From Myxococcota bacterium (GTDB lineage Bacteria; Myxococcota_A; Polyangia; Polyangiales; Houyiibacteriaceae), in the NCBI GenBank assembly GCA_020629955.1, contig JAHDCI010000001.1, positions 11,646-75,645 on the forward strand: 64,000 bases of DNA. Direction: 5' to 3'. Positions 10,562 through 57,245 of this stretch are shown here, in pieces (position 1 is the first letter of the stretch; the number at the start of each line of letters is the position of its first letter). Position numbers and translations under genes: made by a program. The notes under the pieces were generated by a model that was not told where the DNA came from, did no database searches, and saw only the letters and a program-made list of their open reading frames with translations.

Positions 10562-11695
10562 CTATCGAGCGAAGGTCATCCGGAATTCGAGGGTTCGCGG
10601 CGGAGGCGGAGGAAGACGCCAGCCTCGGCTCCGCTGCGTCAAACAATTCGCGATGCCAGAATCCCCGGTCGTGTTTCGCGCGGGCCGCGCCGACGCGATG
10701 CGGCCATCCTCATGGAGAACAAACGCCATCACAATACTTCCACTGAGACCGGGAACGCGCGCGTCCGCTTGATCGAAACAAGTCTGAACGTCGCCCACAT
10801 AGCGAGTCGCCACCAGGCGGCGCGCGGAGCTCGCATACATCACTCCCGTCTGTGACGAGCCGACGCCGCCAGCAGGGGGCACGGTCGGTGCCGGCGGAGG
10901 TTCACTCGTCGGCTCCGGTGCGGGGCGCCCTTGCCAAGGGGGAGGAGGCGCGCTCGGCTCGGGTGCGGGGCGCTGAGCCGGCTGCAGCGGGGGAGAAGGT
11001 TCGACCCCTTGGGGCCGCGTGGGTCGTGGGCTCACCTGCCGCCGGGAAGTCATTCGCGTGGGGCGCATGGAAGAGACCCGTGGCTCCTGAATTTCCGTGG
11101 GGGAAGGCTCCTGAACATCCTCCGAAGATGTATCGTCAGCGCCCGGCGGAACCACTCCTTCGGGCAGGACCGATTGCTCTTCTCTTGCTGGGAGTTCGTG
11201 CATCGCTTCATGTTCTGCCGCCGGCGCGATCTCGCCGATCATCACCGGCGCCCCAGGCTCCGCATTCCCCACGACCCTAGGTTCGGCCTCCGAGAGAAAC
11301 CACATTCCGGCGGCACCAAGCGCGACGAGCCCCGCCGCGGCGAGGCCCATCCACGTGTAGACCTTTTTCGCACTCGTAATGCCTGCCATCGCCATCGTGC
11401 GATTGCCGACAGCACGCGACGAACGAACGGCGACCATCTGCTGAGACATCCTCGCGGCACGCGCAGGATCCGCGAACTCCTCGACCGGCCCAATCCCCAA
11501 GGGTGAGGGCTGAGGCCGTATCGTTTTGGTATGCGCGATGAGTCCGCTCCCGCACTGTCCACAAAAGCGCGCGTAGCCAGGATTCTCCGTGCCGCAACAA
11601 TCACATCTCACGCCTGTTATCATGCCCGTCTTTGAACGCCCCGTCACTACAGGTGTCCCGCGGCCGCCGCGTTGCCCTTCAGCCCAGTTCCTCAT
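10562..11695 (-). CDS. Zinc-ribbon / TM / Pro-rich / TonB-C-like (AgmX/PglI C-terminal domain) envelope protein, GltJ/AgmX-like architecture
   Basis: It has an N-terminal CDCCGTENPGYARFCGQCG zinc ribbon, one TM helix (WMGLAAAGLVALGAAGMWFL), a Pro-rich spacer, and a C-terminal two-Cys domain (VQTCF...GSIVMAFVLHEDGRI...IANCL...WRLPPPP). The start is ambiguous: the ATG at 11695 has GAGGAA-N9 upstream, and the alternative ATG is at 11623. Confidence 0.75.
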   Translation of the reverse strand: MRNWAEGQRGGRGTPVVTGRSKTGMITGVRCDCCGTENPGYARFCGQCGSGLIAHTKTIRPQPSPLGIGPVEEFADPARAARMSQQMVAVRSSRAVGNRTMAMAGITSAKKVYTWMGLAAAGLVALGAAGMWFLSEAEPRVVGNAEPGAPVMIGEIAPAAEHEAMHELPAREEQSVLPEGVVPPGADDTSSEDVQEPSPTEIQEPRVSSMRPTRMTSRRQVSPRPTRPQGVEPSPPLQPAQRPAPEPSAPPPPWQGRPAPEPTSEPPPAPTVPPAGGVGSSQTGVMYASSARRLVATRYVGDVQTCFDQADARVPGLSGSIVMAFVLHEDGRIASARPARNTTGDSGIANCLTQRSRGWRLPPPPPRTLEFRMTFAR

Positions 11696-11769
11696 CGAGG
11701 GCAGTTCCTCATCGAGGGCAGTTCCTCATCGAGGGCAGTTCCTCATCGAGGGCAGCTCCTCATCGAGCG
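11685..11769. repeat. 17-bp tandem repeat x5 (CAGTTCCTCATCGAGGG; the last unit is degenerate)
   Basis: Direct reading shows units starting at 11685, 11702, 11719, 11736 and 11753. Each unit contains the small inverted repeat CCTC-ATC-GAGG. Confidence 0.9.
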
Positions 11770-11840
11770 CGGTTCTCATCCAGCCCACGTTCTGATCCAG
11801 CGGGGCTTCGCGTCCTCGTGCTATTCTGTCCCCACTTGAG

Positions 11841-12662
11841 ATGGGATGGTCGAGTACAGCGAAGTGGCCGAGTCGAGGGTCCGAAGACGGTCCCTTTCGA
11901 TCGGACGGGCTGATCGCAGAAACGAAGCGATTCCGGCCAGTCCGCGCCGGAGGAAGCGGTTACTTTAAACCCACTCGGATTGCACTCTCAGAGCGCTGTC
12001 TATTTGCCGAAGTCCAGAACGAAATCCGCATGGTCGAGCGCCACCGCGTGAGCGGGTTCGCAACGCATCGGGGCTTCGTCTGGATTGCAATCACGGATGC
12101 AGAGTTCCTGCTAGTTCCCGCGCGATCCACCAAGCGATTTCAGAAGGCCTTAGGCCAGCCGAGTGAGGCGTCCAATACCGAGCCCGCCGGCGCAATCTGG
12201 ATTCTACTCGGATTGCTTGCGATGGCCGGAGGCGTGGCGTGGAGAATCTTCGCGGACACTCAAGGCCTCGGGTCGGCGATCGCCCAGTTGCTACTCTGCC
12301 TAAGTCTTCCGATCGCCCTGCTCTTTCAACCCCGGTGGTCAAGCTATTCGAGATGGGGCGTGCTGTCCTATCGAGGAATCCTCCGTGGGGACCCGCTCGC
12401 GATCCCTCGCTCGGAGATACGAAGCATCACGCAACAAGCGGAGGTCGACCGAGTAAACGTGCCGATTTACCTCGTCAAAACGAAGCAGGGGCAGACCGTT
12501 CTCGGACTCGGAACCCGCAAAGACCTCCTCGATCCAAGTCTCGAAACACTGGGAGAAAAGGCGGCAAAGGTTCTGGATGTCCCCTTCACGCCCTCGTTCT
12601 CCCCGCGCCCCGATCCCCCGTCGAACGTTCACCGCGACATCCACACCGACATCCATCGGTGA
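11841..12662 (+). CDS. Hypothetical membrane protein (two central TM helices)
   Basis: The long ORF has coding-like composition. The TM segments are AGAIWILLGLLAMAGGVAWRIF and AIAQLLLCLSLPIALLF. I recognised no motif, and the start is uncertain. Confidence 0.5.
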   Translation: MGWSSTAKWPSRGSEDGPFRSDGLIAETKRFRPVRAGGSGYFKPTRIALSERCLFAEVQNEIRMVERHRVSGFATHRGFVWIAITDAEFLLVPARSTKRFQKALGQPSEASNTEPAGAIWILLGLLAMAGGVAWRIFADTQGLGSAIAQLLLCLSLPIALLFQPRWSSYSRWGVLSYRGILRGDPLAIPRSEIRSITQQAEVDRVNVPIYLVKTKQGQTVLGLGTRKDLLDPSLETLGEKAAKVLDVPFTPSFSPRPDPPSNVHRDIHTDIHR

Positions 12663-12771
12663 CCGCGCGGATAGCGGGCTCACGTCCTCGCGAACCCGGG
12701 TCATTTTCACACTGCGAGCGCTGGCACAGCCCCATCTTGACCGGCGGGCGAAATAGTGAAGGCTGCTCTGC

Positions 12772-15700
12772 ATGTCCGACCAAAGTCCGGCCTCTCCCTT
12801 TTCCATTTCCGACCTGAAGGCGGCGCTCGACAGAAGAATCCTTCTGCTCGACGGCGCAATGGGGACGATGGTTCAACGCGCGAAGTTGACCGAAGCGGAT
12901 TTCCGCGGAGAGCGATTCACGGCGCACCATAAAGATCTCAAGGGCAATAACGACTTGCTCGTTCTCACGCGGCCCGACGTCATCACAGACGTGCATCGTC
13001 AATACCTCGCGGCCGGCGCAGATATCATCGAGACAAACACCTTCAGCGCAACGACGATCGCGCAGGAAGACTACGACCTCTCACATATCGCCCGTGAGTT
13101 GAATGTCGAAGCTGCGCGGGTCGCGCGTGCGGCGGCAGACGCCTACTCGACCAAAGACCGTCCACGCTTCGTCGCTGGCGCGATCGGGCCGCTCAACAAG
13201 ACCCTCTCGCTCTCGCCCGATGTCGAAGACCCAGGGTACCGCGCAGTGACTTTCGAGGAGGTCAAGACCGCATACCGCGAGCAGCTCGAAGGGCTCCTCG
13301 AAGGGGGCGTCGACCTTTTCCTCGTCGAGACGATTTTCGACACGCTGAACGCGAAAGCAGCGCTCGTCGCCATCGACGAGCTTGCCCAAGAGACCGGCCG
13401 GCAGATCCCGACGATGATCTCCGTGACGATCACCGACCGCAGTGGCCGAACCCTCAGCGGACAGACGGTCGAGGCGTTCTTCTACGCCGTCGAGCACGCA
13501 CGTCCGCTCAGCGTGGGCATCAACTGTGCGCTTGGCGCCGAAGAGATGCGCCCCTTCCTCAACGACCTCTGCAAGGTCGCGAGCACCTACGTCAGCTGCT
13601 ACCCGAACGCCGGTCTTCCAAACGCGTTCGGAGAGTACGACCAAGACCCGAGTACGATGGGTAAGCTCCTCGGAGAGTTCGCTCAGGACGGCATGCTGAA
13701 CATCGTCGGCGGCTGCTGCGGGACGACGCCCGACCACATTCAGGCCATCGCAGAATCGGTCAAAGAAGCGAAGCCGCACTTGCCGGCCAAGAAGAGCACG
13801 AACACGCGTCTTTCCGGACTCGAGCCGCTCGAGCTCACCAAATCGAGCGGCTTCCAGATGGTTGGCGAACGTACGAACGTCACGGGCTCTCGAAAGTTCA
13901 TGCGCCTCATCAAGGATGGCAAGCTGCAGGATGCTCTCGTCGTCGCGACCCAGCAGGTCCGCGGCGGCGCGAATATCATCGATATCAATATGGACGAGGG
14001 CATGCTCGATAGTGTCGAGCTGATGGGGAAGTTCCTCGACCTCATCGCTTCGGAGCCTGAAGTCGCCCGCGTTCCCATCATGGTCGATAGCTCCAAGTGG
14101 GAGGTTCTCCTCGAAGGGCTAAAGCATATCCAGGGCAAGGCCGTCGTGAACTCGATCAGCCTCAAAGAAGGCGAAGAAGAGTTCCTCGACAAGGCGCGCC
14201 AGCTCCGCCGTTTTGGCGCCGCGGCCGTCGTGATGGCCTTCGACGAAGACGGGCAGGCCGATACCCTCGAGCGACGTGTTCAGATCTGTAGCCGAGCCTA
14301 CAAGCTGCTCACGGAAGAAGCCGGTTGGGACCCGAGCGATATTATCTTCGACCCGAACGTCTTTGCCGTCGCGACCGGTATCGAAGAGCACGACCGCTAC
14401 GGGCTCGATTTCATCGAAGCCACACGTCAGATCAAAGCAGCATGCCCCGGCGCGAAGATCAGCGGCGGCGTGTCGAACCTAAGCTTCTCTTTCCGCGGCA
14501 ATAACGTTGTCCGTGAAGCGATGCATGCCGCCTTCCTCTACCGCGCGATCGATGCCGGCATGGACATGGGCATCGTCAACGCGGGACAGCTCGCCGTGTA
14601 CGAAGAGATCCCGGAAGCGCTGCTCGAGCATGTTGAGGACGTACTTCTCTGCCGGCGCGAAGACGCGACTGAGCGCCTTGTCGCGTTTGCCGAGACGGTC
14701 AAAGGCAAAGGCAAAAAGCGCGTCGAAGATCTCAGCTGGCGGGAAGCCTCCGTCGAAGATCGAATCGCGCATGCGCTCGTCCGCGGCGTTGTCGACTTCA
14801 TCGTCGAAGATACAGAAGAGGCGCGCCAGAAGCTTGGCCGCCCGCTGAATGTGATCGACGGTCCGCTCATGGACGGCATGGCGATCGTTGGCGACCTCTT
14901 CGGCGCCGGAAAGATGTTCCTTCCCCAGGTCGTCAAGAGCGCGCGCGTGATGAAGAAAGCCGTCGCCCATCTCGAGCCGTTTATGGACGCGGAGAAGGAC
15001 GAGAGCGCGGCCAGCCAAGGCAAAGTCTTGCTCGCGACGGTCAAAGGCGACGTGCACGATATCGGGAAAAACATCGTCGGCGTCGTGCTCGGCTGCAACG
15101 GCTATGAGGTCATCGACCTCGGTGTCATGGTCCCGCAGGAAAAGATCCTCCGGCGCGCTCAAGAAGAGAAGGTCGACGCCATTGGTCTTTCGGGGCTGAT
15201 CACGCCATCTCTCGACGAGATGGTCAGCGTCGCCAATGAGATGCAGCGCCGCGGGATGAAGATGCCGCTCCTTATTGGTGGAGCGACGACGAGCCGGCAG
15301 CATACGGCCGTGAAAGTCGCCCCCGAATACGAAGGCGCCACGGTGCATGTCCTCGATGCCTCGCGCGTTGTAAACGTCATGAATGCGCTCCTCGACGAGG
15401 AACGCGTCGGCCCCTACATCGAGGCGGAACGTGAAAAACAGGACCGTCTGCGGCGTCTCTTCGAAACGCAGCAAACCCGCGAAATGCTGCCACTCTCGAT
15501 TGCACAAGAGAGCGGTCTCGAGACCGAATGGGAGCGTGTGAAGTTCCACGCCCCGGAAGGCCTCGGCGACAAAGGCTGGACTCGCGAAATCGTCGAGGAT
15601 GTCACGATCGAGACGCTCCGCCCCTTTATCGATTGGACGATGTTTTTCTCCGCCTGGGAGCTTCGCGGAAAGTTCCCGAAGATCCTCGAACACCCGAAAG

Positions 15701-37939: not shown

Positions 37940-38526
37940 GCAACTCACCAAAAATCCCGGATATGCCAGAGCCCGTCGATCTTTCCGCGCTCGATCCCAC
38001 AAGCGACCCGATTGCGTGGGAAGAACGAATCGCTCAGATCGTGGATCCACCCCTCGATTTCGGCTCGCTCAATCCAACCGGCTCCGAAAACTGGGAAGCA
38101 GGCGTTCAAGGTGTGCTCGATGCCCTCGAGACCGAAGATGCTCTGCATCGCCTTCAAGGCTTCTCGGGCGAAACACTCGAGTCGGCAATCGGCCACATTC
38201 TCGATGCGAGCGCGGCGCCGAATGTCCCGGAAACGCGAGAGCATTTGGTCGCGCACCTGCCGATGGACCGGCAAACCAACGACGAGAGTGAGGACGCTCC
38301 AGCGACCATTGTCACGTTGGCCCCGAGAGCGCTGTCTTTCGCCGCGGCTCTCGCCGCAGCCGCGTGGCTGATTGTATGGGCAATCCCCCGGCAGCCGAGA
38401 GCAATCGCCGAGACCGATCCCGAGATGGCGGTGATGGAGTGGGCGGAAAGTGGAGATGCCTCGGGTTCCGACGCGCTCGAAGCGCTGGGTAGCTGGACGA
38501 CGCTCGACCAGGTGCAAGATGACTAA
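37936..38526 (+). CDS. Putative single-pass anti-sigma factor
   Basis: Its start overlaps the sigma gene's stop (ATGA). It has one TM helix (LSFAAALAAAAWLIVWAI). The call rests on position and topology only. Confidence 0.55.
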   Translation: MSNSPKIPDMPEPVDLSALDPTSDPIAWEERIAQIVDPPLDFGSLNPTGSENWEAGVQGVLDALETEDALHRLQGFSGETLESAIGHILDASAAPNVPETREHLVAHLPMDRQTNDESEDAPATIVTLAPRALSFAAALAAAAWLIVWAIPRQPRAIAETDPEMAVMEWAESGDASGSDALEALGSWTTLDQVQDD

Positions 38527-38986
38527 GCGAAGGCAGGTCGCACCGAGCCTCGTTTTGCTTGCAACGTTCGCCCTCGGTGGGCTCTTCGGTGCAGGCATCT
38601 CGCGTTTTGCCCAGCAGTCCGTGCACCGGGAGCCGCGCAGGGCGCGAAACCCGTTCCCCGTTCATGAGCTCGACCTCAGCGCCGAGCAGCGAGAACGGAT
38701 TCGCGAAATCATGGAATCACATCGACCGGAAGTGCAGGCGATCTTACGGGAAAGCCGCCCAGCCATCGAAGCGATCAACGAGCAGGTGCTGCGCGAGATC
38801 CGCGAGGTCCTCACCGATGCGCAATCTCGCGAGCTTGATCGCCTTCGCTCTCTGCGACCTCCTCCCGGACCACACGGGGGCCCGCCACCGCACGGCGGCC
38901 CACCACCGCACGGCGGCCCGCCACCGCACGGCGGCCCGCCACCGCACGGCGGCCCACCACCGCACGGCGGCCCGTCACCCTTCTGA
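38519..38986 (+). CDS. Periplasmic Spy/CpxP/ZraP-like (LTxxQ-type) protein with a C-terminal (HGGPPP)x6 tail
   Basis: The ATG at 38519 overlaps the anti-sigma stop. The signal anchor is VAPSLVLLATFALGGLFGAG. LSAEQRERIREIM and LTDAQSRELDRL are LTxxQ-like motifs. Six His-Gly-Gly-Pro-Pro-Pro units sit at the C-terminus. Confidence 0.7.
   Translation: MTKRRQVAPSLVLLATFALGGLFGAGISRFAQQSVHREPRRARNPFPVHELDLSAEQRERIREIMESHRPEVQAILRESRPAIEAINEQVLREIREVLTDAQSRELDRLRSLRPPPGPHGGPPPHGGPPPHGGPPPHGGPPPHGGPPPHGGPSPF
38873..38980 (+). repeat. 18-nt in-frame tandem repeat x6 (CACGGCGGCCCRCCACCG) encoding HGGPPP
   Basis: Direct reading shows units starting at 38873, 38891, 38909, 38927, 38945 and 38963. Confidence 0.9.
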
Positions 38987-54623: not shown

Positions 54624-57245
54624 TTACGAAGCCTCCCACCAGGCGTCGACGGGTGCTGCAGGCTGCGACGGCGTCTCTTCGCCCTCACCACCTTCGGTGG
54701 ATTCGCCACTATCGGCAGGCGGTTGTGATGGCGTGTTGCCTTCCGAGGGCGCGGCCTCGCCGTTTTGCTGAAGCCACCAAGGCTCGCCTGTTTCTCCGCC
54801 GTTGCCTTCTCCTGGCTGCGTCTGTCCCGGTTGCGCTTGTCCAGGCTGGGTCTGCGCGGGCTGGGTCTGTCCAGGCTGAGTCTGTGCAGGCTGCGTCTGC
54901 GTGGGTTGCGCGGGCTGAGTTTGTGCGGGCTGCGCGGCGTGACGGACTTCCCACCACGGCCGGCCCACAAAGCCCGCCGCATTTCCGAGAGACTCGGCCC
55001 GCGACCACCAGTGCGCGTAAGCGGGCTGGTTGCTTCGGGGCGTATTCCCAGTGCTGCTTCGGAGACGAATCGAGAAACTCGCGCGCTGCCGGCGCTGCTG
55101 AATCCCGGGGAAGCGAAGCTCCGCGATCGTTGGCGAGAGGCACTCGACAAACTCCGGCGTATTCGGCGCGTAGCGGAACTCCGCGGTGTTGCCCTCTTGC
55201 TCGATGATAAAGGCAAAGCGAACCGTCCCAAGCTCTGGGTTGCGTTCCATTTCGCCTTCAACGCAGCCACGGAGAGCGTCGGTCTGCGCCATAAAGACCT
55301 CATTGATCTGCTCTTGCGTCAGACGCTCCGGACGCGCAGCGCGTTCTTCGGCCTCGGCTTCCGCGGCCGCCAGCGCTTCCGCTTCAACGCGCGCAGCCTC
55401 TTCGTTTTCGAGGCGCGTCGTCTCCGCCTGGAAGATCGCGGTAATCGATTCCTTCAAAGGCGCGATCGTGCGGCCGCGGTCGGCAAAGGTCTGAAGCGAC
55501 GCACGCCCCTCGTCTCCGCCATGCCGGAAGATTCCTTCGGCCGCAATCGTGAGCGGGTCCATGTTCTCCGCAAAGGTGGAGTCCGCGTGATAGAGGGTGA
55601 GGAATTGCTGAAGCGGACCGACCACGGACTCGTCACCAAGCTCAACAATCGCGCGAAGAACGAGCGCGAGCTGGTCCGCTGGTGTCTCGTGATCAAAGAG
55701 GTGCGCGATAAGTTGGCTCAGCGCCTCGCTCTTCTCTTGTTCGAGCAGCGCCGGCACCAGAAGCGTGAAAGGTGGCGAGCGTGTCTCATCGAGGTAGTCG
55801 TAAGAAGTGTTTAATGCCGCGACCAGGTAGTCAGCGCCTGGTTCGCGCGTGCGCAGCGACTCACGGATCGCGTCGCGAAGCGCGCCCGGGGTTGAACGTT
55901 GCGCATAGAGATCGAGCAGCCCCCGCGTGATCTCTGGATCCTCCATCCCGGCAAGTTGACCGATGGCATACGATCGCGCCGCAACGAGGCGGTTGTCAGG
56001 ATCGCCGGCAAGCTCGAGGAGCGACGTCGAGAGATCCCTCGCTTCGCCAGGGTTCGACTCGGGAGCAAATCCGTTCACGTCAAACCCTGCGGACGCAAGC
56101 TCGAGCTCCGCGCCCCCAGTCCAAGCCGAGTTGCCCGTCGACGCATCGAGGAAGTTCGCCCGGCCGCGCTCTCCGAGCGTGAAAAGACCACCACTCAGGA
56201 CCTGAGCCCGGATCACATCCTGCTCGAGGATCCGCGCCCATTCCATCTCGCCAGTCGTCGCGTCATACGCAAAAACATAACGGTAATAGACGAGATAGAC
56301 GCGGCTGGACATGAGCGCGAGTCCATTCTCCCCGGGAGCCGGCGCCACGTAGAAGCGGATCCGTCCCCGCGCGGAGCGAGTACCTGGCGTGGGAATGAAG
56401 ACATCGTCTTCGATCGCCGGCTCACGTGGCGCGCCGGTGACCGGATTGCCAACGTACGTGGATTCGCTCTGACGCCCCGTCGCCGAACTCACATCGAGAC
56501 GGTATATGCCATTGGAGCCGTAGTACACGCCGCTCGGTTCTTCACGCATCCACGCGAGAACGTCGTCGGTCGTCCGAATACGCGTAACTTCATTCCCGGT
56601 CTGCAGGTTGAGGATCGCGATATTCTGCTTGTCCCACGGAATCATCGCATAGCCGCCGCGCGCGACGGGACGCCCGAAGATGCCGGCGAGTTCGTGGTCC
56701 CAAATCGCTCGACCCGAACGCGCATCCACTGCGAACGCATGGCCCACGCGAGTCGCTCCGCCCGAACCGCCGATCGAGAGCACGTAGAGAAGCGTATTGC
56801 CATCCCGCGATGCGCCGACATAGGCGAGCGTATCAAGCTCCTTCTGCCAAAGCGTTTGTCCCGTTTCGGTGGACACCGCGACAATATTCTCACGCGTGCT
56901 GACCATGGTGATATCGCCGAGCACCTCGGGACGCGTCTGTACGTCGAGATTTGTGCGCCACATCTCCGCACCATCGAGCCCAAACGCGACCAACGCGCGC
57001 TCCCCAGCTTCGAGCGAGTGGGTGGACGCGACGATCAGCGGCTGCCCCGAGCTATTGCCGGGTGCGTCCGCAACTTCTCCACCCGCGGCACCGACGATCG
57101 GGCCCAACGTCTCAGCGTCGTTGTCCGGGAACCGAGGGTCGAACGCCGGACGTAGCGCGACCGTGTAGCAGCCCGAAAGAAGGACGAGAACGAAGCTGAG
57201 GGCGAGCAGGGAACTCGCAGGGAGGTTTGTGTTCGAGAACTTCAT
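54624..57245 (-). CDS. 873-aa lipoprotein: PQQ-like beta-propeller + HEAT-like helical region + AgmX/PglI-type TonB-C-like domain + Q/T/P-rich repeat tail
   Basis: The lipobox is LVLLSGC YT. Propeller-type blades are present (GQTLWQKEL..., GRAIWDHEL..., GEMEWARIL...). A two-Cys C-terminal domain follows (LRGCVEGEM...VRFAFIIEQEGN...FVECL...LRFPG). The tail carries QPAQTQPGQTQ repeats and ends WWEAS. Confidence 0.75.
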   Translation of the reverse strand: MKFSNTNLPASSLLALSFVLVLLSGCYTVALRPAFDPRFPDNDAETLGPIVGAAGGEVADAPGNSSGQPLIVASTHSLEAGERALVAFGLDGAEMWRTNLDVQTRPEVLGDITMVSTRENIVAVSTETGQTLWQKELDTLAYVGASRDGNTLLYVLSIGGSGGATRVGHAFAVDARSGRAIWDHELAGIFGRPVARGGYAMIPWDKQNIAILNLQTGNEVTRIRTTDDVLAWMREEPSGVYYGSNGIYRLDVSSATGRQSESTYVGNPVTGAPREPAIEDDVFIPTPGTRSARGRIRFYVAPAPGENGLALMSSRVYLVYYRYVFAYDATTGEMEWARILEQDVIRAQVLSGGLFTLGERGRANFLDASTGNSAWTGGAELELASAGFDVNGFAPESNPGEARDLSTSLLELAGDPDNRLVAARSYAIGQLAGMEDPEITRGLLDLYAQRSTPGALRDAIRESLRTREPGADYLVAALNTSYDYLDETRSPPFTLLVPALLEQEKSEALSQLIAHLFDHETPADQLALVLRAIVELGDESVVGPLQQFLTLYHADSTFAENMDPLTIAAEGIFRHGGDEGRASLQTFADRGRTIAPLKESITAIFQAETTRLENEEAARVEAEALAAAEAEAEERAARPERLTQEQINEVFMAQTDALRGCVEGEMERNPELGTVRFAFIIEQEGNTAEFRYAPNTPEFVECLSPTIAELRFPGIQQRRQRASFSIRLRSSTGNTPRSNQPAYAHWWSRAESLGNAAGFVGRPWWEVRHAAQPAQTQPAQPTQTQPAQTQPGQTQPAQTQPGQAQPGQTQPGEGNGGETGEPWWLQQNGEAAPSEGNTPSQPPADSGESTEGGEGEETPSQPAAPVDAWWEAS
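54810..54938 (-). repeat. Coding low-complexity repeat (about 15-nt units encoding QTQPA/QTQPG)
   Basis: Direct reading of CTGGGTCTG(C/T)(G/C)C(G/A)GG-type units gives the translation AAQPAQTQPAQPTQTQPAQTQPGQTQPAQTQPGQAQPGQTQPG. Confidence 0.8.

Follow-up and report, generated by a model that had tools for sequence, protein, structure and literature searches.

In Mycobacterium tuberculosis the genes dop, lpdA and cysG carry promoter repeats that vary in copy number, and the repeat at dop has been annotated within the coding sequence (PMC12817950). The MIRU elements present a second arrangement, in which an internal ORF is coupled at -4 nt, by an ATGA overlap, to the gene downstream, as the work of Supply et al. 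1997 is summarised in PMC12548453. In Haemophilus influenzae the 5'-UTR of hmw1A contains the repeat (ATCTTTC)n, which is transcribed and acts as a rheostat (PMC12721329), and hifA and hifB are served by a combined divergent promoter that holds a TA repeat; TAAA repeats are described for nadA (PMC3899988). Here we analyse a tandem array of 17-bp units that lies between two divergent genes, 10562..11695 on the minus strand and 11841..12662 on the plus strand, in a Myxococcota genome. Coordinates refer to the window, which is the whole stretch of 64,000 nucleotides that was analysed.

The array shares single features with each of these systems. As at dop, lpdA and cysG, the tandem repeat is found just upstream of a gene, where it would be a substrate for slippage or recombination, and as at dop part of it appears to have been called coding through over-extension of the ORF. 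The unit is 17 bp here against 54-58 bp in M. tuberculosis, and an identified promoter element within the unit and a demonstrated variation in copy number are features of the M. tuberculosis repeats only. Like a MIRU, the unit contains a short ORF, with a 4-nt overlap between its stop codon and the following start, so that insertion or amplification would spare translation downstream. MIRUs differ in that they are 40-100 bp long, dispersed and situated between the co-oriented genes of operons; the present unit is 17 bp, occupies a single locus within the 64-kb window, with no dispersal there, and sits in a divergent intergenic region, and the start to which it is coupled is probably not the conserved one. 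With hmw1A and hif the array has in common a period that is not a multiple of 3 and a position upstream of an envelope protein gene, and the hif repeat is also placed between divergent genes. For hmw1A and hif the variation in copy number is proven, works on expression as a rheostat or switch, and has a defined mechanism, as an RNase III hairpin or as -10/-35 spacing, whereas at our locus there is no hairpin (z = -0.8) and a scan found no promoter. The array is best filed with the general class of intergenic VNTRs or minisatellites. On balance we favour the view that it is a minisatellite generated by slippage in a divergent intergenic region and decayed at its edges, which would be tolerated since translation from the upstream starts ends at once.

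Units, extent and decay of the array

TRF identified an array of period 17 at 11685..11780, with 5.7 copies, 93% matches and a score of 164, the top score among those arrays of the window that have a period not a multiple of 3. Four perfect units, found both by exact matching and by TRF, form its core at 11685..11752 on the minus strand, where each reads CCCTCGATGAGGAACTG. On the plus strand the exact 17-mer is CAGTTCCTCATCGAGGG, which occurs head to tail at 11685, 11702, 11719 and 11736. In a shuffle control for the unit the mean was 0.31 matches, and 0 of 100 dinucleotide shuffles got to 6. The fifth unit, CGCTCGATGAGGAGCTG (11753..11769, minus strand), agrees with the consensus at 15 of 17 positions, with 2 mismatches, and keeps the ATG together with a GAGGAG motif. 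The five direct repeats described in the original prediction were recovered in this way, by TRF and exact matching, as four perfect units and one near-perfect one at 11685-11769.

We also identified three units beyond the five of that prediction. Unit 6, GGCTGGATGAG-AACCG (11770..11785, minus strand), is decayed to 16 nt by a one-base deletion and matches at 12 of 17 positions; its SD-like motif is gone and its ATG is retained. In unit 7, CGCTGGATCAGAACGTG (11786..11802, minus strand), which is also decayed and matches at 11 of 17 positions, the ATG is altered to ATC. Towards the gene, a probable decayed unit 0, GGCTGAAGGGCAACGCG (11668..11684, minus strand), matches the perfect unit at 6 of 17 positions and agrees in register with units 6 and 7 at 10 of 17 positions each (P ~0.002-0.005, using random 17-mers from the window). 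With this probable unit included, the array probably extends over ~11668-11802 and comprises about eight units. Four identical units are therefore seen inside the array and degenerate units at both of its edges, giving a gradient of decay, as is typical of minisatellites that slippage or unequal exchange homogenises at the centre. The array is both larger and older than five units. The decayed units that are still present indicate an old array, with which selection as well as neutrality could be compatible. Because the array would reach to ~11668, codons 1-9 of the annotated ORF 10562..11695 appear to be repeat-derived.

The sequence comes from a metagenome-assembled genome of a lineage without close relatives, and such an assembly might contain a real repeat with the wrong number of perfect units. 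An independent k=31 assembly, Logan contig L001 (SRR14415275), does break in the array, ending within the repeat 19 nt upstream of ATG 11695. A k-mer assembler is expected to break at a true repeat. The break in L001 confirms that the repeat was present in the reads and says nothing on copy number. The perfect tract between unique anchors measures ~73 nt, a distance spanned by ordinary 150-nt reads, and decayed units anchor the tract on both sides. We consider an artefact in the number of perfect units to be extremely improbable. The protein of ORF 10562..11695 itself was found on one NCBI contig and on one Logan contig, the latter broken in the array.

Copies of the unit were sought in several collections. 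A scan of genome contigs with the single-unit 17-mer returned at least 120 stretches with a single chance match apiece, and among the genome-contig matches listed there was no array like that at 11668-11802. A two-core pattern gave two unrelated two-copy matches only, and no similar array, in JGI metagenome contigs, and 0 matches in viral contigs. Elsewhere in the 64-kb window there were no dispersed copies of the unit beyond chance. When the motif was relaxed to allow for the old units, as GCTGGATGAGAAC, 10 matches were found across the window (7 of them array units and 3 outside), compared with 5.1 expected by chance. With only 3 relaxed matches outside the array, we rejected a regulon-like dispersed motif.

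Each unit also contains a small palindrome, CCTC-N3-GAGG, and the array resembles plasmid and chromosomal iterons in being built of tandem direct repeats, which in iterons are ~17-22 bp long. The units could accordingly be imagined as an iteron-like array or a reiterated operator in which the palindromes bind a regulator cooperatively. This seems very unlikely to us. By our estimate a palindrome with 4-bp arms is expected by chance in a large share of 17-mers, and the relaxed motif has just the 3 outside matches noted above. Unlike iterons, the units abut without spacers, and there are no origin features: an initiator (Rep) gene, an AT-rich DUE and DnaA boxes are all absent. The neighbours encode a protein with a zinc ribbon and an AgmX C-terminal domain and an orphan protein, so no rep or regulator gene is nearby, and the window holds metH and other chromosomal housekeeping genes. 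The GC content is ~0.60 across the region, with no AT-rich stretch that might serve for unwinding.

The mini-ORF ladder and the start of the gene

A script listing all minus-strand ATGs showed that each good unit reads ATG AGG AAC TGC CCT CGA TGA on that strand. The first mini-ORF, MRSCPR* (11743..11763, minus strand), starts at ATG 11763, and its TGA overlaps ATG 11746. Three overlapping mini-ORFs, each MRNCPR*, follow at 11692..11746 on the same strand, from ATGs 11746, 11729 and 11712, and the last TGA (11694-11692) overlaps ATG 11695, which opens a 377-codon ORF ending at 10562. The overlap of TGA with the following ATG, as ATGA, is found at all the unit junctions from 11763 to 11695, and the distance from the end of GAGGAA to the following ATG is 9 nt throughout the good units. 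The four upstream ATGs, the peptides, the ATGA overlaps and the 9-nt spacing had all been predicted, and the script reproduced each of them. The prediction that the chain would be unaffected by gain or loss of a unit also holds, since each unit restores the same ATG context. One further ORF had escaped the prediction. The ATG of unit 6, at 11779, opens 17 codons, MRTALDEELPSMRNCPR* (11726..11779, minus strand), that run into the ladder. The locus thus displays the overlap of stop and start, with an SD-like motif upstream, that is looked for in termination-reinitiation.

This geometry follows to a large extent from arithmetic. The frame from a unit ATG covers five codons, the sixth lies across the junction, and the TGA of the next ATGA comes after it. 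Because the unit contains ATGA and the period of 17 is 2 mod 3, six-codon frames are closed by the TGA of the following unit. The ladder, together with its independence from copy number, is therefore forced by the sequence and length of the unit, and its geometry is not independent evidence of design. To put rates on this, random 17-mers drawn from the window were arrayed in tandem. An ATG was present in 31% of them; 16% gave a mini-ORF chain, 11% a chain with stop/start overlap, and 1.6% the overlap together with an SD-like tetramer 5-12 nt upstream. For a random unit the full set of features (ATG, chain, overlap and SD-like motif) is somewhat unusual, with P ~0.016. The chance that ATG 11695 runs in frame into the gene is ~0.2, the product of 1/3 for being in frame and 0.59 for 24 open codons. 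In assorted fetched loci totalling 1.06 Mb, arrays with a period of 10-40, not divisible by 3, and with at least 3.5 copies occur at ~4 per Mb; from this rate and that of the ladder, chance alone would be expected to supply a 10-Mb genome with about one complete ladder. Only copies identical by descent show the ATG and SD features, which older units have progressively lost, so that the ladder bears no mark of purifying selection.

The annotated ORF (10562..11695, minus strand) encodes 377 aa, with an N-terminal zinc ribbon, a TM segment, a Pro-rich linker and an AgmX/PglI C-terminal domain. The zinc ribbon, at residues 31-51 counted from ATG 11695, falls under the Pfam cut-off; the C-terminal domain is TonB-C-like and matches NF033768 of NCBIfam with E = 1.8e-12. 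An exhaustive HMMER search returned 108 relatives at E <= 1e-10. The alignments of all the full-length homologues start between query residues 24 and 31 and between homologue residues 2 and 7. Of the 18 full-length homologues inspected, all 18 have their first zinc-ribbon Cys at residue 3-13 (median 3), the typical N-terminus being M-x-C-x-x-C-G, and even the three longest homologue N-termini have a Met two residues ahead of the Cys. We compared three candidate starts on the minus strand with this pattern. From the annotated ATG 11695 (MRNWAEGQR...) the first Cys is residue 31, from ATG 11623 (MITGVRC...) it is residue 7, and from GTG 11611 it is residue 3, giving M-R-C-D-C-C-G, the pattern of the family. 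The homologue N-termini, beginning 3-13 residues before the Cys, thus favour GTG 11611 or ATG 11623 over the repeat-derived ATG 11695.

Judged from these alignments, the family-consistent start is most likely GTG 11611 or ATG 11623, which would place the perfect units 62-74 nt upstream of it. The annotated start at 11695, taken by both the NCBI and the Logan gene callers, is most likely an over-extension drawn by the repeat-borne GAGGAA-N9-ATG. A codon model that had learnt from 19 long ORFs in the window gave the 24-codon extension a score of -3.6, which is under 98% of true in-frame 24-codon windows; the score leans towards a non-coding extension but is weak taken by itself, since the N-terminal windows of the gene are low as well. 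Starts that lack an SD are the rule here: an SD-like tetramer is lacking at 17 of the 24 first starts in the window, including that of metH, and the starts at two homologue loci, L130 and L131, are likewise without an SD-like motif. As for the original prediction, ATG 11695 does open the long ORF in frame, as it had stated, but as the start of the gene it is opposed by all 18 homologues. The proposed feeding of the gene by termination-reinitiation along the leader chain is in the same position, in that the geometry is exact and the real start probably lies downstream of 11695.

GAGGAA, at its distance of 9 nt, could plausibly serve as a ribosome-binding site, SD motifs being in use at some genes of this genome, and transcription of the array would mean real translation of the ladder. 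It is conceivable that the mini-ORFs act as a functional series of uORFs, carrying ribosomes by stepwise termination and reinitiation through a transcribed 5' leader to AUG 11695 as the true start, with copy number tuning the ribosome loading. The exact geometry would suit such a role, an ATGA (-4) overlap with an upstream SD being the classic arrangement for coupling, and a role in delivering ribosomes has been proposed for short uORFs, among them the MIRU ORFs coupled at -4 nt (PMC12548453). The P of ~0.016 for the full feature set and the choice of 11695 by the gene callers point in the same direction. We nevertheless regard this role as unlikely. The extension of 24-28 residues that it would require is missing from 18 of 18 homologues, comes from the repeat and scores poorly on codons; the chain is forced by the arithmetic of ATGA and period 17; and the SD-like motif and ATG are gone from older units, while homologue loci are without the array. 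Start sites 17 nt apart would also be expected to be sterically exclusive, so that extra units should add little loading. A more elaborate version, in which a copy-variable ladder of coupled six-codon uORFs sets the ratio of extended to canonical isoform of this AgmX/PglI-type envelope protein through AUG 11695 by the number of SD-AUG sites, strikes us as highly improbable.

Neighbourhood, structure and promoters

The two flanking genes, 10562..11695 (-) and 11841..12662 (+), are divergent, and the intergenic region measures ~230 bp from the family-consistent start. The ORF at 11841..12662 encodes a membrane protein of 273 aa and begins 39 nt from the decayed end of the array. We found only the self match for it among 5.8 billion proteins, so that it is referred to here as an orphan; its codon score is positive in frame and negative in the other five frames. 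The next gene is metH, at 12772. Its product has its closest matches, just 71% identical, among MetH proteins of Polyangiaceae and Sandaracinus MAGs, which indicates a lineage without a close sequenced relative. The loci of these closest MetH relatives have a different upstream gene, encoding an ArsR-HTH/methyltransferase protein, and are not syntenic upstream of metH. Homologues of the zinc-ribbon protein gave two loci for comparison, L130 (42% identical) and L131 (35%), and at neither is there an upstream tandem repeat or a comparable uORF. The original prediction had asked for a comparable array in related genomes, and these two loci have none.

The minus-strand RNA from 11810 to 11600 did not fold above its shuffles (MFE z = -0.81), and Rfam gave no match at E <= 1. 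The locus accordingly has neither the conservation upstream of homologues (L130, L131) nor the RNA structure or family by which regulatory leaders and uORFs are recognised. As single-stranded DNA the array folded with z = -1.2 and -1.7, and on these DNA values and the RNA z of -0.81 we rejected both a structured leader and a slippage hairpin. A scan for sigma-70-like promoters found none, an inspection by eye for sigma-54-like elements showed nothing convincing, and the single terminator-like site is no more than chance would give. Whether the plus strand codes was considered separately. All three frames are open and three ORFs of 55-93 aa cross the array, with negative codon scores, and this possibility was rejected.

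These results bear on whether the array is a contingency locus that works at the level of DNA or transcription, where slippage would shift the spacing or helical phase between the divergent promoters or between a promoter and an upstream element, and would switch or grade the expression of one or both genes. The array offers what such a locus needs in sequence, since four perfect units are a good substrate for slippage and a perfect tandem tract at the 5' end of a gene, by which phase-variable loci are recognised, is present at ORF 10562..11695. A unit of 17 bp corresponds to ~1.6 helical turns. The position is also suitable, being intergenic between divergent genes and 39 nt from the orphan ORF, and there are precedents in hifA/hifB and nadA (PMC3899988), in dop, lpdA and cysG of M. 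tuberculosis (PMC12817950) and in hmw1A (PMC12721329). Against this, the promoter scan revealed no sigma-70-like sites, a long hairpin of the hmw type is absent (z = -0.8), and the array is known from one genome and from one Logan contig that is broken in it. The neighbours, to judge from their domain matches, are not known phase-variable surface antigens. We think this reading rather unlikely.

Origin and meaning of the array

If the array is a minisatellite tolerated between the two genes, as we favour, its history may be outlined as follows. Replication slippage or unequal recombination would have produced it, and the interior units would have been homogenised or amplified recently, with the edge units decaying by loss of the SD-like motif first and of the ATG second. 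That the unit carries ATGAGGAA would be a matter of chance, and it would make the array translationally benign. Were the array transcribed toward the gene, initiations at the upstream ATGs would abort after six codons, and the last ATG (11695) alone would read on, adding 24-28 Gly/Arg-rich residues, presumably dispensable, to the N-terminus. The gene cannot be frameshifted when a unit is gained or lost. Any effect of the array on either flanking gene would then be quantitative, exerted through the distance to the promoter or by how many start sites compete, and in this sense it is possible that the array is a candidate locus for the tuning of expression.

Two more general points arise from the analysis. 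For annotation, the repeat-borne SD-ATG probably drew the annotated start 72-84 nt too far upstream. For the interpretation of repeats, mini-ORF ladders are to be expected arithmetically, and not as design, wherever the period is not a multiple of 3. If the ladder did set an isoform ratio, it would amount to a heritable yet reversible translational rheostat made from a single 17-nt module, in a myxobacterium. Proof that the array varies and tunes expression would make it a rare case of repeat-based contingency regulation in the Myxococcota, and also a neat minimal example of a repeat unit equipped with a ribosome-binding site, a start and a stop of its own.

Plus-strand ORFs across the 17-bp array, and the contig break

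Read on its plus strand, the 17-bp array lacks stop codons in all three frames, so that it is spanned by three overlapping ORFs of 55-93 aa (window 11589-11913), all with negative codon scores. We also observed that L001, a Logan contig from SRR14415275, terminates within the array, with its positions 1-30 matching window 11714-11685. The contig end lies 19 nt upstream of ATG 11695, the annotated start of the zinc-ribbon ORF, where the 17-bp repeat broke the k=31 assembly.

A 14-nt inverted repeat, with 86% complementarity, has its arms at window 11597-11610 (ACAATCACATCTCA) and 11837-11850 (TGAGATGGGATGGT), so that each of the divergent genes has one arm at its start region. This arrangement is probably due to chance.

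Other tandem arrays

The 178-aa ORF 38450..38986 (+) has a C-terminal tail of (GGPPPH)x6, which is encoded by an 18-bp x 6.2 array (window 38869-38979; TRF score 187). Nested 15/30/45-bp arrays at 54801-54937 translate as QTQPA/QTQPG repeats, close to the C-terminus of an 873-aa ORF, 54624..57245 (-). In a marine Polyangiaceae relative (loci L125/L126) a 10-bp x 4.6 array (CGCCTACGCA, 15077-15122) sits at the 3′ end of a gene with a MutS_V domain.

The gene upstream of metH

The 273-aa ORF upstream of metH is an orphan, having no homologues among 5.8 billion proteins. In the closest MetH relatives (L125-L129), which are ~70-71% identical to the window MetH, an ArsR-HTH/SAM-methyltransferase gene adjoins or overlaps metH, whereas here (window 11841-12772) the orphan ORF occupies the position of this gene.
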